A DNA stretch of 58,743 nt from an uncultured Candidatus Saccharibacteria bacterium (GTDB taxonomy: Bacteria; Patescibacteriota; Minisyncoccia; UBA6257; GWB1-50-10). A program made the translations under genes and the position numbers. Positions 43,283 to 48,886 of this stretch are shown here, in pieces. Below the pieces are notes generated by a model. That model made no database searches. It was not told the origin of the DNA and saw only the letters and a program-made list of their open reading frames with translations. Every line of letters begins with the position of its first letter. The stretch's first letter is position 1. The DNA lies in contig CAZMFA010000002.1 in assembly GCA_964565515.1 (NCBI GenBank), positions 1 through 58,743 on the forward strand, given 5' to 3'.

Positions 43283-43714
43283 TTAGGCAAATTTCTTTAT
43301 TTCCCGTTCGGTCTCCCTTTTCTTTATCACTTCCCGTTTGTCGGTTTTCTTCCGGAATCTCCCGAGGCCGATTCCAAGCTTTATCTTGCCGTGCTTATTA
43401 TACATCTTAATCGGGATTAGTGTCAATCCTTTGGTCTTTCCGATGAGGTAATCGATCTCGTTTTTTTTCACGAGCAGTTTTCGCAATCTCTTGGGGTCAT
43501 AAACCCCGGGAATATTCTTCGGCTGGTACGCCGGGATGTCGAGGTTCACAATCCAAAGCTCGCCCCGCACGAGGGAGGCGTAGGACCCCGAAAGGTTCAC
43601 TCGGCCGCTCGTTACGGCTTTCGCTTCGTAGCCCTTCAATACGATGCCGGCCTCGAATGCCCCGAGGATCTCGTAGTCGAAGAGAGCTCTTTTGTTTTCC
43701 GCAAATATAGCCAT
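43283..43714 (-). CDS. smpB: SsrA-binding protein SmpB
   Basis: 143 aa; NKRALFDYEI and GYEAKAV motifs. Confidence 0.9.
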   Translation of the reverse strand: MAIFAENKRALFDYEILGAFEAGIVLKGYEAKAVTSGRVNLSGSYASLVRGELWIVNLDIPAYQPKNIPGVYDPKRLRKLLVKKNEIDYLIGKTKGLTLIPIKMYNKHGKIKLGIGLGRFRKKTDKREVIKKRETEREIKKFA

Positions 43715-43748
43715 GAAACCTCTATTATTTTATACTAAACAACAAGCA

Positions 43749-45335
43749 ATGACGATAAGGGAAGAAATAAAGAAGAAATTGAAGGAAGTGGCCGGCCTCG
43801 AGGCTGGATTCTCGGTCGAGGTTCCGGACAGGAAGGTGACCGATGCCGACTATGCGACGAACATCGCTTTTGCGCTTGCAAAACTCGAGAAAAAATCTCC
43901 GCAGGAAGTGGCGAATGAGATCGCTGATTCGTTCCGGCGATCTCCGCTTGGGGCGGTGGACCGGGTGAGCGTTTCGGGAAACGGCTTCATTGATTTTTGG
44001 ATTTCGAAAAAATCGCTTCAGGAGGAAATCGGTGAAATTTTGAAGGCGGGGTCGAAGTACGGTTCTTCCCAATCGATCAAAGGACGCGTGCAAGTCGAGT
44101 TCATATCGGCGAATCCCACGGGGCCCCTTACGCTTGCCAACGGCCGCGGCGGATTTTACGGAACTGCGCTTTCGAATGTCCTTCAGTTCGCCGGCGCCGA
44201 TGTCGAGCGTGAATACTACGTGAATGACAGCGGCAATCAGGTTTTGACGCTCGGGAAGTCGATTCTTGCCGCAGCGGGGTTCGTCGAAGGTTCGGAAGAA
44301 TTCTATCAAGGCGAATACGTCAAAGAATGGGTCGGCAGAAACCGTGCGTTTGTGGAGAAGCATCGGGAGGATCCGGAAGCTGTCGGCGAGCGGGCGGCAG
44401 ACGATTTTTTGGAGGGGATCAAGCACGTCATCGAAGGAAAGTCGGGCATACGTTTCGATCGCTATACTTCGGAGCGGAGTATTCGGAAGAAAAGACTTCC
44501 CGAAGAGGCACTGCGGCTTCTCCGAAAGTCGGGGAAGGTGTACGAGGCCGATGGCGCCGTGTGGCTCAGGACGGCCGACTTCGGCGACGATAAAGACCGA
44601 GTTCTCCTTACCAAAGACAACCTTCCGACGTATTTTTTAGTCGATGCCGGCCATTATCTCGAGACCAAAAAGCGCGGGTTTGACTGGAAGATCAATATTT
44701 TGGGGCCCGACCACTACGGTTACGTGCGGCGGATCCAGGCGGTTGCAGACATTTTAAAATTCAAAAAATCAGACGTTTTGATAACGCAAGCCATTCTCAT
44801 TAAAAAGGGGGAGGAATTCGTGAAGATGTCGAAACGGAGAGGCACGTTCGTCACCTTTGAAAATTTGGTGGACGAAGTCGGTGTCGATGTCGCAAAGTTC
44901 TTCTTCCTTGCGGTCGGTGCGAACTCCCATATCGATTTTGACCTGGATTTGGCGAAGGAGCGTTCGTCGAAAAACCCCGTGTTTTACGCCGAGTACGCCC
45001 TCGTTCGCGCCCGGAAGATCCTCGTGAAGGCCGGCGCTAAGATAAAGGCCAAAGCGAAAGACCTGGGCGCTTTAGATTCAGCTTCCGAGCGCGAACTCAT
45101 GGTTCGCCTCGCATCCTTCCCCGATGTAGTTGCCGAATCAGCGCGTGATTACGAGATCCATCGGCTCACGCGGTATCTTATGGGAGCCGTAAAATCGTTC
45201 CATAATTTTTACGAAGAGGAAAAGGTGATTGGCGGTGAGCATGAGCGGCCGAAGCTCGCTTTGGTCGCCGCGTCCGTTGTTGTTTTCGAGAACACTTTCC
45301 GCCTTTTGGGTATCGTGCCGCCGGAGGAAATGTAG
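43749..45335 (+). CDS. argS: arginyl-tRNA synthetase
   Basis: SANPTGPLTLANGRG (HIGH region) and KMSKRRG. Internal ATG 43749 lies 12 nt after TATACT (43731-43736). Confidence 0.9.
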   Translation: MTIREEIKKKLKEVAGLEAGFSVEVPDRKVTDADYATNIAFALAKLEKKSPQEVANEIADSFRRSPLGAVDRVSVSGNGFIDFWISKKSLQEEIGEILKAGSKYGSSQSIKGRVQVEFISANPTGPLTLANGRGGFYGTALSNVLQFAGADVEREYYVNDSGNQVLTLGKSILAAAGFVEGSEEFYQGEYVKEWVGRNRAFVEKHREDPEAVGERAADDFLEGIKHVIEGKSGIRFDRYTSERSIRKKRLPEEALRLLRKSGKVYEADGAVWLRTADFGDDKDRVLLTKDNLPTYFLVDAGHYLETKKRGFDWKINILGPDHYGYVRRIQAVADILKFKKSDVLITQAILIKKGEEFVKMSKRRGTFVTFENLVDEVGVDVAKFFFLAVGANSHIDFDLDLAKERSSKNPVFYAEYALVRARKILVKAGAKIKAKAKDLGALDSASERELMVRLASFPDVVAESARDYEIHRLTRYLMGAVKSFHNFYEEEKVIGGEHERPKLALVAASVVVFENTFRLLGIVPPEEM

Positions 45336-45388: not shown

Positions 45389-48300
45389 ATGCTCGATGAT
45401 TTGGATAAATTCTCCTTGCCGGAAACCGAAGAAAAGGTGCTGAAATTCTGGAAAGAAAACGGCATTTTCGAGAAATCGCTCAAGAAGAACAAATCAAAAA
45501 AGAAATTCATTTTCTATGAAGGCCCTCCGACGGCGAACGGCCGGCCGGGGATCCATCACGTGCTTTCCCGCTCATTCAAAGACGTCATTTTGCGCTACAA
45601 GACGATGGCCGGATTTTTCATTCCGCGCCGGGCTGGGTGGGATACGCACGGCCTTCCGGTTGAGATTGAAGTCGAAAAGAAGCTCGGATTGAGATCCAAG
45701 AAGGAGATCGAAGAGTACGGCATTGCGGCGTTCAACAAGAAATGCCGCGAGTCGGTGTGGGAATATAAGGATGAATGGGAGAAAATCACCGAACGCATCG
45801 GATTCTGGCTCGACATGGATCATCCGTACATCACGTACGAGAAGAATTATATGGAGAGCTTGTGGTGGATCTTTTCTCAAGTTCATAAGGAAAAGCTTTT
45901 ATACCAAGGGCACAAGGTCGTGCCGTGGTGCACGCGGTGCGGAACGGCTTTGTCGTCGCACGAGCTCGCGCAGGGATACAAGACGACGGAAGATACGTCT
46001 GTCTACATCAAGTTCAAGCTCCTCCCGGGCCAGACGATCGGCAGGAATTTCACGACCGACGAGAAGACGTATGTCCTTTCGTGGACCACGACGCCCTGGA
46101 CGCTCCCCGGGAATGTCGCCTTGGCCGTCGGTGAATCGATTGAGTACGCCCTCGTTTCCGTCGAGAGCGGGGAAAAATACCTTCTGGCCGTTCCCCGTCT
46201 CGGTATTCTGGAAAGATACGAGATGAAGGCCAAGCTGAAGGGTAAAGATCTCATTGGTCTCAAATATGAGCCGCTCTTCGACGTGCCAAAACTCAAGACA
46301 GAAAAATCGTATAAGGTGTATCCCGCTGGTTTTGTGACGACGGAAGATGGTTCCGGCGTCGTCCATACGGCCGTCATGTACGGTGAGGACGACTATGAGT
46401 TGGGAACGAAGATCGGTTTGTCGAAGCACCATACGGTCAATACCTCGGGAAAATTTACCGCTGATGTTCCGGAGCTTGCGGGGTCATACGTAAAAGCGAA
46501 GGAAACCGAGGAAAAAATATTCGAACTTCTCAAGAGGCGGAACTTTCTCTTAAAGACCGAAAAGTACGAGCACGAGTACCCGTTTTGCTGGCGGTGCGGC
46601 ACGCCAATCCTTTATTACGCCCGTGATTCGTGGTTCATCGGCATGTCGAAGTTGAAGCAGAAGCTTTTGACTTCGAATAAGACGGTGAACTGGGTCCCGA
46701 AGGCCATCAAGAACGGCAGGTTCGGGGGATGGTTGAAGGAGGCCAAGGATTGGGCGATTTCCCGCGAACGGTATTGGGGAACGCCGTTGCCGGTCTGGGT
46801 ATGCGGGAAGTGCGGCGCAACCGAGGTTTTGGGAAGCGTTGCGGAGCTTGAAAAGAAGCTCGGCCGCTCGAAGAATAATTACTGGGTCATGCGTCACGGC
46901 GAGTCCGAAAGCAATGTGAAGGATATTATCGACGCGACGGCGAATCGCTTCCATCTCACGCCGCGCGGCAGGAAGCAGGTGGAGGCGTCGATCAAGAAGT
47001 TCAAGCGAGAACTTTCCCGAAAAGGGAAGAAAATCGATGTCGTTATCACATCTGACATCTTGCGGACGAAGGAAACGGAAGCAATCGATCTTAAAGTGCT
47101 GGGGAACGTTGCGTCGAAGGTGGATAAGCGCCTCGAGGAGATCAAATTGGGGACGGACCTTGCCGGCTGTCACGATGAAAAGTACCACATGCTCTTCCCG
47201 ACCTACCAAGCGAAGTTCGAGCGGCGGCCCGAAGGAGGGGAGTCGGTTCGCGACCTTCGGACGCGCCTCTTCGCGTTCCTCAAGGAGTGCGAGGCGAAAT
47301 ACGAGGGGAAAAATATCCTTCTCGTGACGCACGAATACCCGATTTGGATGCTCTTTCAGGTCGCCGAAGGTTGGACGGAGCGCGAAGCGATCGCCGAAAA
47401 GGAAAGACGAGGTGATGATTTCATAAAATTTGCCGAAGTCCGGAAGCTCGACCTTACGGTGGTCCCCCGGAACGATACCGGCGAGATTGATCTCCATAAG
47501 CCGTATGTAGACGAAGCAGTTTTCAAGTGCCGGTGCGGCGGAACAATGAAGCGGATCTCCGAAGTGGCGGACGTGTGGTTCGATTCCGGATCGATGCCGT
47601 TCGCCGAAGACCACTATCCTTTCGAGAACAAGATGAAGCTCGCGTATCCCGCCGATTACATCGTGGAAGGTATCGATCAAACGCGCGGCTGGTTCTACAC
47701 GCTCCTTGCCGTCGCAACCCTTCTCAAGAAGAAAGCTCCGTACCGGAACGTCGTTTCCCTGGGTCTCGTGCTCGACAAGAACGCCCAAAAGATGTCGAAG
47801 TCCAAGGGAAACACCGTGAGTCCGTGGGACATGATTCAAAAATACGGGGCCGACACCGTTCGGTGGTATTTTTATACCGTGAACGCACCGGGCGAGCCGA
47901 AGCGTTTTGACGAAGCGGATCTCGGGAAGGTGCTCCGCCAGTTCGTCCTCATGATATACAACTCGTACGTCTTTCATCGAACCTACGCGGATAAACATGC
48001 AAAATACAAAGCGCCGACCGCCAAGTCGAACATTCTCGATCGGTGGATCATTACCCGCCTCGATGAGGTTGTTGCCGCCTCAACAAAGGCGCTCAATGCT
48101 TATGACGTCGGGGGAGCCGGCAAATCGATCGAAGAGTTCGTGAACGATCTTTCGCGGTGGTATATCAGGCGTTCGCGGAGGCGTCTCCAAAAACCTGACG
48201 ACAAAAAAGATTACGCCGCCGCGTCAGCGACTCTCGGATACTGCCTCGCGGAGCTCGCGAAACTCATCGCTCCCTTTATGCCGTTTTTCGCCGAATCGCT

Positions 48301-48886
48301 TTATCAATCAGTGTCGCCGAAGGGGAAAACCTCGGTTCATTTGGAAGACTGGCCTAAAATTAATTCAAAATTCGAAATTCGAGATTCGAGATTACTGCGC
48401 GATATGAAAACGATTCGCGATCTGGCGAGCGCGGCGCTCGCGAAGCGCGCCGAATTGGGGATCAAGGTCCGACAGCCCCTCCAGTCGTTGGAAGTGAAAA
48501 ATTTCAAATCAAGAATGAACGAAGAGTTGCTGGCTATTTTGAAAGATGAAATCAACGTGAAGGAAATAATTTTTGACCCCAAACTTAAGGAAGATTTTGT
48601 TCTCGACGCGAATATAACGCCGGAACTCAAGGAAGAGGGAACGGTGCGCGAACTCGTGCGGATGGTCCAAGGTCTCCGTCAGGATGGGGGACTGGCCCCC
48701 AAAGACAGGATTGTTCTGATGCTGGAGGCCGGATTGGAGGTGAAAGGCGTAGTTGAGCGGAATAAGAACGCCATCATGAAAGAAATAAGCGCTTCGGCAA
48801 TCGTCCTGAAGCGCTTCGATAAATTCGACGTCGAGATCGACACGAAGTTCGACGGCGATCAGATTTGGATCGGGATAAAAAAATAG
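45389..48886 (+). CDS. ileS: isoleucyl-tRNA synthetase with an inserted histidine-phosphatase-like domain
   Basis: HIGH (PGIHHV), KMSKS (KMSKSKGN) and editing-domain motifs. About 195 extra residues (aa 496-690) between the CGKCG and CRCGG knuckles carry RHGESESN and LVTHEYPI. Confidence 0.9.
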   Translation: MLDDLDKFSLPETEEKVLKFWKENGIFEKSLKKNKSKKKFIFYEGPPTANGRPGIHHVLSRSFKDVILRYKTMAGFFIPRRAGWDTHGLPVEIEVEKKLGLRSKKEIEEYGIAAFNKKCRESVWEYKDEWEKITERIGFWLDMDHPYITYEKNYMESLWWIFSQVHKEKLLYQGHKVVPWCTRCGTALSSHELAQGYKTTEDTSVYIKFKLLPGQTIGRNFTTDEKTYVLSWTTTPWTLPGNVALAVGESIEYALVSVESGEKYLLAVPRLGILERYEMKAKLKGKDLIGLKYEPLFDVPKLKTEKSYKVYPAGFVTTEDGSGVVHTAVMYGEDDYELGTKIGLSKHHTVNTSGKFTADVPELAGSYVKAKETEEKIFELLKRRNFLLKTEKYEHEYPFCWRCGTPILYYARDSWFIGMSKLKQKLLTSNKTVNWVPKAIKNGRFGGWLKEAKDWAISRERYWGTPLPVWVCGKCGATEVLGSVAELEKKLGRSKNNYWVMRHGESESNVKDIIDATANRFHLTPRGRKQVEASIKKFKRELSRKGKKIDVVITSDILRTKETEAIDLKVLGNVASKVDKRLEEIKLGTDLAGCHDEKYHMLFPTYQAKFERRPEGGESVRDLRTRLFAFLKECEAKYEGKNILLVTHEYPIWMLFQVAEGWTEREAIAEKERRGDDFIKFAEVRKLDLTVVPRNDTGEIDLHKPYVDEAVFKCRCGGTMKRISEVADVWFDSGSMPFAEDHYPFENKMKLAYPADYIVEGIDQTRGWFYTLLAVATLLKKKAPYRNVVSLGLVLDKNAQKMSKSKGNTVSPWDMIQKYGADTVRWYFYTVNAPGEPKRFDEADLGKVLRQFVLMIYNSYVFHRTYADKHAKYKAPTAKSNILDRWIITRLDEVVAASTKALNAYDVGGAGKSIEEFVNDLSRWYIRRSRRRLQKPDDKKDYAAASATLGYCLAELAKLIAPFMPFFAESLYQSVSPKGKTSVHLEDWPKINSKFEIRDSRLLRDMKTIRDLASAALAKRAELGIKVRQPLQSLEVKNFKSRMNEELLAILKDEINVKEIIFDPKLKEDFVLDANITPELKEEGTVRELVRMVQGLRQDGGLAPKDRIVLMLEAGLEVKGVVERNKNAIMKEISASAIVLKRFDKFDVEIDTKFDGDQIWIGIKK

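Follow-up and report, generated by a model that had tools for sequence, protein, structure and literature searches.

The window, that is the whole 58,743-nt stretch analysed here (contig CAZMFA010000002.1, assembly GCA_964565515.1, uncultured Candidatus Saccharibacteria bacterium), carries on its forward strand an ileS gene, coding for isoleucyl-tRNA synthetase (IleRS), in which a complete histidine-phosphatase (HP) domain is nested in frame. The gene, the insertion site and the domain are laid out as follows:

45389..48886, + strand: ileS, type-2 IleRS with nested phosphatase, complete, 1165 aa (list of open reading frames (ORFs), profiles, PDB alignment, AlphaFold)
46802..46816, + strand: CP3 zinc knuckle, first half, C472-G-K-C475-G (CGKCG, aa 472-476), aligned to CQAC of T. 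thermophilus IleRS
46859..47488, + strand: nested HP domain, aa 491-700 (PF00300, AlphaFold, Foldseek)
46883-47380, + strand: Pfam core of the HP domain, aa 499-664 (PF00300 match)
46892..46900, + strand: R502-H503-G504, RHG motif, H503 being the predicted phospho-accepting nucleophile (conservation)
47063..47065, + strand: R559, second phosphate-binding Arg, in the S555-x3-R559 motif, aligned to the Arg of PhoE and of cofactor-dependent phosphoglycerate mutase (dPGM)
47138..47140, + strand: E584, predicted general acid, in the LEEIxLG motif, aligned to the Glu of 'rlrEihlG' in PhoE
47330..47332, + strand: H648, second catalytic His, in the VTHEYP motif, aligned to the His of 'vtHg' in PhoE
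47528..47536, + strand: CP3 zinc knuckle, second half, C714-R-C716, aligned to C502 and C504 of T. thermophilus IleRS

The insertion point was fixed by alignment to a characterised enzyme, T. thermophilus IleRS (1ILE): residues 6-490 of the window protein corresponded to chain residues 6-479 and residues 700-1024 to chain residues 488-820, and the gap between query residues 490 and 700 therefore represents ca. 200 extra residues. With C472/C475 before it and C714/C716 after it, the extra segment occupies the tip of the CP3 zinc knuckle; it is missing from 1ILE and from the insert-less relatives. CP3 with its zinc motif has been described for IleRS (Chung et al. 2020, PMC7191050); each of the four cysteines is kept in at least 90% of the homologues. 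The whole body of the window enzyme aligned to T. thermophilus IleRS (1ILE, 1JZQ; E 1e-236) and to Priestia megaterium IleRS2 (PmIleRS2, 8C8U-8C9D; E 1e-234), and the CP3 cysteine pairs bind zinc in the T. thermophilus protein; 1ILE and PmIleRS2 have ca. 9 residues at the place where the window IleRS has ca. 210. The insertion point was identical in every nested form, between '...GSxxELxx' and 'xDLHRPYID'; the corresponding downstream flank of the window IleRS reads DLHKPYVD...KCRCGG (aa 701-717).

An earlier sequence-only reading of this gene had proposed a 1165-aa IleRS with an inserted phosphatase, flanked by both cysteine pairs, and the ORF, the profiles and the 1ILE alignment agree with it; the motifs CGKCG (aa 472-476), WVMRHGESESN (aa 499-509) and LLVTHEYPIW (aa 644-653) were found at the positions claimed. 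Some of its measures needed correction. The distance from CGKCG to DLHKPY, given as ca. 195 residues, is 224, the net length of the insert being ca. 195-200; the coordinates 46874-47458 describe the domain core (aa 496-690), the full extra segment being 46859-47488. The same reading let the knuckle hold the ends of the insert together. This is not required of it, because some nested forms have lost its cysteines: in P0173, P0165 and P0224 the zinc-binding cysteines of CP3 are gone on both sides of the insert.

The match of the insert to PF00300 (His_Phos_1) is far above chance level (E 1.4e-25; 90.6 bits in the whole protein, 95 bits for the excised segment, cut-off 21.7). The AlphaFold model of aa 488-700 (41 aligned sequences) was obtained with pLDDT 93.5 and pTM 0.91; Foldseek comparison of this model with the PDB gave 285 matches at E ≤ 0.001, the best 50 of which were all histidine phosphatases or mutases. 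Best matched were PspA (4IJ5/6), the riboflavin-pathway HFP (9MMH), PhoE (1H2E), GpgP (4QIH/6S2Q), CobC (6NRU) and dPGMs (probability 1.00, TM ca. 0.7, identity ca. 20%). By profile, motif and fold the domain belongs to branch 1 of the histidine phosphatase superfamily (PF00300), which upholds the identification first made from the letters.

In PhoE and in S. pombe PGM, the residues aligned with R502, H503, G504, R559, H648 and E584 are the catalytic ones. R502, H503, S555, R559, E618 and H648 were found in 205 of 205 embedded copies, and the position of E584 is E or D in 203 of them; the equivalents of the RHG Arg and His, of R559 and of H648 are present in 41/41 free copies too. An N-x-Y motif of its own precedes RHG in the IleRS-linked HP family. 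With a mean identity to the query of 61%, vs 55% for the rest of IleRS (106 homologues), the insert is no less conserved than its host. The domain is thus, as had been supposed, intact rather than decayed, all catalytic residues being present and invariant or nearly so in the relatives. A decayed or pseudo-enzyme domain was rejected on the catalytic set of the 205 embedded copies; an intein or mobile selfish insert was rejected as well, the segment being one globular HP fold from junction to junction, with no second Pfam domain or nuclease. Pseudo-enzymes do occur in the histidine phosphatase superfamily, and the domain could in principle have lost its chemistry and act as a scaffold or spacer in CP3; given the complete set in all embedded copies, drawn from lineages down to ca. 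30-40% identity, this is extremely improbable.

The HP domain fits no named enzyme model, all scores being far under the curated cut-offs. Rejected on this ground were dPGM (NF038349, 66.7-70.6 bits, cut-off 225; NF002339, 36-40 bits, cut-off 316), CobC (TIGR03162, 42-47 bits, cut-off 162.9), PspA (NF045917, 30-35 bits, cut-off 350) and SixA (TIGR00249, 19.8 bits, cut-off 74.5). The SixA score bears on the idea that the HP is a protein phosphatase that relieves inhibition of IleRS, or of some other translation factor, by taking a phosphate off it. The superfamily includes the protein phosphatases SixA, Sts and PGAM5; the kinases HipA and HipT put such an inhibitory phosphate on GltX and TrpS; the SixA model is at least a weak match, and action in cis would account for the 1:1 nesting. 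The distance of that score from its cut-off, the small-molecule enzymes among which the nearest structures are found, and a conserved hp neighbourhood in which no kinase gene was seen make this explanation very unlikely.

The synthetase around the insert retains its own sites:

45548..45559, + strand: class I signature motif in the swapped form G54-I55-H56-H57 (G/AXHH, not HXGH), aligned to HVGH of 1ILE
45974..46582, + strand: CP1 editing domain, aa ca. 196-398, with TTTPWT and GxGxVH motifs, matching 1WK8 and 1UE0
47789..47803, + strand: KMSKS loop, K801-M-S-K-S805 (read from the sequence)

The ileS equivalog model TIGR00392 matched with 891.2 bits (cut-off 621.4) in two stretches, interrupted at aa ca. 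502. The Pfam scan found tRNA-synt_1, Anticodon_1 and DUF5915 (PF19302), the last at aa 1032-1164, where it forms the type-2 C-terminal region; between the type-1 C-terminal zinc-binding domain and this region the window IleRS falls on the type-2 side, and its best PDB matches were 1ILE and PmIleRS2 (8C8U-W), not S. aureus 1FFY. Class I signature, KMSKS loop and CP1 editing motifs are all in place: the isolated IleRS editing domains 1WK8 and 1UE0 match aa 196-398; T233-T235, W237, H326 and D335 are invariant among 60 homologues (TTTPWT being aa 233-238); K801, S803 and K804 are invariant among the homologues. The full-length AlphaFold model (pLDDT 91.4, pTM 0.85) has blocks above 90 pLDDT at both insert junctions, neither of which is of low confidence, and this would fit a firmly packed insertion. 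Judging by these conserved motifs, the gene encodes a complete and probably working type-2 IleRS; no second ileS was found within the window. G/AXHH is a natural IleRS2 variant tied to mupirocin hyper-resistance (Brkic et al. 2023, PMC10485003). Assignment to the mupirocin-resistance enzymes MupA/MupB was rejected (813 and 800 bits, cut-off 1900), and so was a tie between the insert and the swapped motif, the nested forms comprising 60 with HxGH vs 69 with G/AxHH.

Assembly error as the source of the insert was checked on Logan contigs from three separate samples, each of which runs from 46466, 46482 or 46505 to 47900 as one piece, spans both junctions and shows 0 differences; the samples come from one mine-drainage study and may include the window's own source sample, and the comparison is with contigs rather than raw reads. 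The gene is flat in base composition and its reading frame runs through unbroken. Searching with aa 440-760 gave 7980 matches; among the best 120, which were listed, all are IleRS (full-length or fragments) that carry PF00300, at 53-87% identity, so that at least 120 homologues have the same architecture. Their source assemblies, in NCBI, JGI, ENA and Logan, bear the labels Patescibacteria, Paceibacterota or Minisyncoccia; the arrangement is thus conserved across the clade. With the junctions spanned in three samples, this number of homologues, an unbroken frame and a confident structure model over both junctions, the probability that the insert stems from a chimeric assembly or mis-joined contig is negligible. 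The contigs of all three Logan runs break at 46466-46534, ca. 350 nt 5' of the insert; the loose ends there read as Nextera adaptor sequence (CTGTCTCTTATACACATCT), and the break, which lies at neither insert junction, looks like an artefact of the library and its assembly graph.

Directly ahead of ileS lies a second synthetase gene:

43692..45335, + strand: argS (arginyl-tRNA synthetase, ArgRS), directly 5' of ileS (ORF list; ArgRS homology)

As listed, the argS ORF begins at TTG 43692; the conserved N-terminus (MTIREEIKKK) seemingly starts from an ATG at ca. 43749, some 19 codons on, and this may be the true start.

The insert alone, searched with HMMER against 1.84 billion representatives, gave 2354 matches at E ≤ 0.001. 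The closest were nearly all IleRS with the domain at the same site, or fragments thereof; next came free proteins of ca. 190-210 aa. Nine of these free HP proteins, used as queries, led to 49 loci from species genomes, the majority carrying the label Staskawiczbacteria or Nealsonbacteria. A free-standing hp gene precedes an insert-less ileS on the same strand in 43 of the 49 loci; in three (L038, L040, L042) hp is nested as in the window, and the other three are cut by contig ends. An ArgRS gene lies directly upstream of hp or ileS in 46/49. The conserved order is argS-hp-ileS, and the window has argS-ileS[hp]. The order argS-hp-ileS(-x-recO) came up again around three more free HPs, which belong to other subclades and were located by another search route. 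From the hp stop to the ileS ATG there are at most 10 nt, or an overlap (ATGA, TAATG), in 21 of the 43 free loci; 11 loci have 11-120 nt there and another 11 exceed 120 nt. Genes found in the larger hp-ileS gaps code for Fic, a PLP enzyme, a PaaX/Cas2-like protein, a CYTH protein of the triphosphatase family, cupin, a NUDIX hydrolase and two proteins with no Pfam match; the slot is a variable hot spot (loci L008, L015, L016, L034, L004, L006, L007 and L019).

As a control, metagenome contigs were queried with IleRS only: of 72 classifiable loci, 64 were without hp, seven nested and one free upstream. This survey gives no frequency within the candidate phyla radiation (CPR), the 64 hp-less genes being mostly IleRS2 of 44-52% identity, apparently from other bacteria. 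Many database proteins (P0122, P0129, P0136, P0166, P0210, P0231 and others) begin exactly at the Met of 'MRHGE', within the insert, and extend into the C-terminal half of the synthetase; such entries may reflect faulty gene calling where a contig ends, frameshifts, or a genuine split of the IleRS gene at the insert.

Trees were built from IleRS with the insert removed (88 rows) and from the HP domain (101 rows, IQ-TREE); as these were FastTree or 'quick' runs of unknown root, switches were counted without direction (insertion vs excision). In the IleRS tree at least four changes between nested and free are forced by well-supported branches, for example where the free form L044 is sister of the nested P0172 (support 100). 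The HP-domain tree likewise gave at least four; it groups the nested HPs of L038, L040 and L042 in a clade of 41 rows whose other members are free HPs (SH-aLRT 97-98). The trees thus imply that the embedded and free states have switched at least four times, at the same loop each time. Pairs of loci were also found in which similar hp genes stand ahead of divergent ileS genes: L009 and L012 (hp 81% identical, IleRS 43%), L041 and L044 (74% and 43%), L022 and L034 (69% and 45%); hence the hp-ileS adjacency outlives replacement of ileS. The flanking argS genes are of two types, ca. 25% and ca. 40% identical to the window argS; seemingly, hp was conserved and stayed where it was while the synthetase genes on either side were exchanged in situ.

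These data bear on an explanation in which the HP is an ordinary metabolic phosphatase, PhoE-, PspA- or PGM-like, of a reduced genome, co-expressed or now and then fused with highly expressed translation genes and with no mechanistic tie to IleRS. The general neighbourhood of the hp loci, a translation cluster of infC-rpmI-rplT, smpB, argS, ileS and recO, speaks for it, as do the hp-less relatives of the IleRS and the occurrence of the HP in free, ArgRS-fused or Sua5-fused form; reduced genomes fuse genes readily. Nesting 200 aa in a loop of an essential enzyme is, however, far more demanding than membership of an operon; the switches deduced from the trees all fall at one loop, the adjacency survives a swap to an ileS type of 43-45% identity, the hp stop lies within 10 nt of the ileS start or overlaps it in 21/43 free loci, and the curated dPGM, CobC, PspA and SixA models score far below their cut-offs. 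On balance we regard a merely housekeeping enzyme as unlikely, if one to be taken seriously.

Fusions to other partners are few. An ArgRS with an HP of this clade at its C-terminus was seen in P0191 and P0270 only, two clusters of 92% identity, and was rejected as a widespread architecture; at the locus of P0191 (L052:6001-8070) the order is smpB, argS::hp, recO, and ileS is gone from its usual place between hp and recO, which may be read as hp having remained with argS when ileS left. A fusion of an HP, again of this clade, to Sua5/TsaC (threonylcarbamoyl-AMP synthase) is known from one representative (P0186, L053:977-2140), whose HP is sister to the IleRS-nested domains (support 98). The products of Sua5/TsaC are an acyl-adenylate and pyrophosphate (PPi), and the tRNA 3' end plays no part in its work. 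Two HP domains in one IleRS were found in P0174 and P0253, one of them at the CP3 site, the second near query aa ca. 748 in P0174 and just ahead of the anticodon-binding domain in P0253; both proteins recall the enzyme of SR1, a CPR lineage, in which IleRS is interrupted by one NUDIX and two PGM domains at several sites (Kantor et al. 2013, mBio, PMC3812714).

The SR1 enzyme is the closest known system: there, too, a CPR IleRS is broken in frame by domains of the phosphoglycerate-mutase family, the window differing by a single domain at the CP3 knuckle. The description is a one-sentence remark with no analysis, and the free hp gene of an argS-hp-ileS operon is not described in it; besides this sentence, full-text literature searches returned no mention of an IleRS-phosphatase architecture, which is also absent from a 2026 survey of how IleRS evolved. 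The supposition in the sequence-only reading that such an arrangement has no precedent must nevertheless be given up, in view of that sentence and of database IleRS with the same pair of domains; the pair IleRS + PF00300 is visible in the annotations of thousands of database entries. The arrangement has been noticed before and little studied, and the window adds one more member. New here are the single-domain CP3 form, the argS-hp-ileS operon link, the adjacency kept through ileS replacement and the repeated switching between free and nested states.

Other likenesses are more distant. The small branch-1 phosphatases PspA (4IJ5), PhoE/YhfR (1H2E, 1EBB), GpgP Rv2419c (4QIH, 6S2Q), CobC (6NRU) and HFP (9MMH) share the fold, the Arg-His...Arg...Glu...His set and a short cap region; they are free-standing enzymes of known small substrates at ca. 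20% identity, whereas the window HP is tied to ileS. NF040702 (isoleucine--tRNA ligase, N-acetyltransferase domain-containing) is a curated IleRS with an extra enzymatic domain, which in that case is GNAT; the window protein matches its IleRS body only (349 bits, cut-off 1999). NF005567 (bifunctional RNase H/acid phosphatase, Rv2228c type), the second-best NCBIfam match of the insert (61 bits, cut-off 326), is likewise a branch-1 phosphatase fused to a nucleic-acid enzyme, with another partner and joined end to end rather than nested.

The SR1 domains and the gap genes also touch on a possible healing of the tRNA acceptor end, in which the HP would strip a blocking 2'/3'-phosphate or a 3'-pyrophosphate remnant from tRNA-Ile on IleRS; such blocks could stem from nuclease damage or from tRNA-pyrophosphorylating toxSAS toxins. 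IleRS and ArgRS both bind the CCA end of tRNA, and nesting beside the core would put the HP near it; there are documented toxins whose pyrophosphorylation of the CCA end stops aminoacylation (10.1101/2021.04.30.441581, PMC11559606), one relative has a NUDIX gene in its hp-ileS gap, and NUDIX and PGM domains occur together within the SR1 IleRS (PMC3812714). On the other side, the close structural relatives all act on small molecules, the fusion to Sua5/TsaC, an enzyme that binds no tRNA 3' end, is a misfit, the HP domain showed no RNA-binding feature, and there is no evident reason to repair tRNA-Ile alone. We hold this role to be improbable, slightly more so than that of a plain metabolic enzyme.

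The reading we favour, tentatively and with somewhat less than even confidence, is that the insert, a branch-1 HP of ca. 200 aa nested at the CP3 tip, is an IleRS-coupled phosphohydrolase acting on a small phosphorylated compound. Because relatives encode the same protein separately between argS and ileS, the HP would be an operon partner of IleRS that was taken into the polypeptide. It would be a true phosphohydrolase of standard family chemistry: R502, R559 and H648 would hold the phosphate, H503 would be transiently phosphorylated and E584 would serve as the acid; nesting would keep the HP 1:1 with IleRS and beside its catalytic core. The conserved residues suggest an active domain; the fusion, taken together with coupling, persistence and recurrence, suggests a functional tie to IleRS.

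As substrate one may think of a by-product or inhibitor, nucleotide or pyrophosphate in type, linked to adenylate-forming tRNA enzymes; that the substrate belongs to this class of small phosphorylated compounds is a guess, and a doubtful one, isoleucine and the tRNA body being less likely targets still. We lean towards a small compound because the close structural relatives are all small-molecule phosphatases or mutases, because the HP is found also on Sua5/TsaC, an adenylate- and PPi-forming enzyme that does not touch the tRNA 3' end, and because NUDIX and CYTH phosphohydrolase genes sometimes fill the hp-ileS slot; rare fusions and heterogeneous gap genes are weak evidence.

Several points weigh against an IleRS-coupled phosphohydrolase of this kind. 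IleRS-like genes of 50-58% identity with no hp nearby exist (e.g., L067, 58%; L062), and the pairing with hp is therefore not obligatory for this type of IleRS. IleRS releases AMP and PPi; since typical histidine phosphatases are phosphomonoesterases, action on PPi would be unusual for branch 1. Besides NUDIX and CYTH, the gap genes include Fic, PLP, PaaX/Cas2-like, cupin and two unknowns; the ArgRS and Sua5 fusions are rare (two clusters and one representative), and the former would need no more than a lost stop codon where argS stands ahead of hp. The gene order, lying inside a ribosomal and translation neighbourhood, may reflect co-expression only.

A wider proposal would be that in much of Patescibacteria the making of Ile-tRNA, and in a looser sense the work of other adenylate-forming tRNA enzymes, includes an unrecognised phosphohydrolase step, the HP being a translationally coupled partner, or a third active site of IleRS next to those for synthesis and editing, that clears a phosphorylated by-product or inhibitor from the synthetic site or unblocks the tRNA 3' end; we consider this conceivable and, on present grounds, unlikely.

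Aminoacyl-tRNA synthetases are among the best-studied enzymes and, to our knowledge, the catalytic sites of those of class Ia are the ones for synthesis and editing. An intact phosphatase that accompanies IleRS throughout a bacterial radiation, either as a coupled gene or, after several independent switches, nested within a single loop, suggests an accessory activity. Functional coupling of the two would mean a new step in tRNA charging (removal of a by-product, repair of the tRNA end, or immunity to an inhibitor or toxin) and a natural case of a domain repeatedly nested in an essential enzyme; if the HP is only a passenger, it would illustrate the packing of unrelated enzymes into essential genes by reduced genomes, and would caution against inferring function from fusions.

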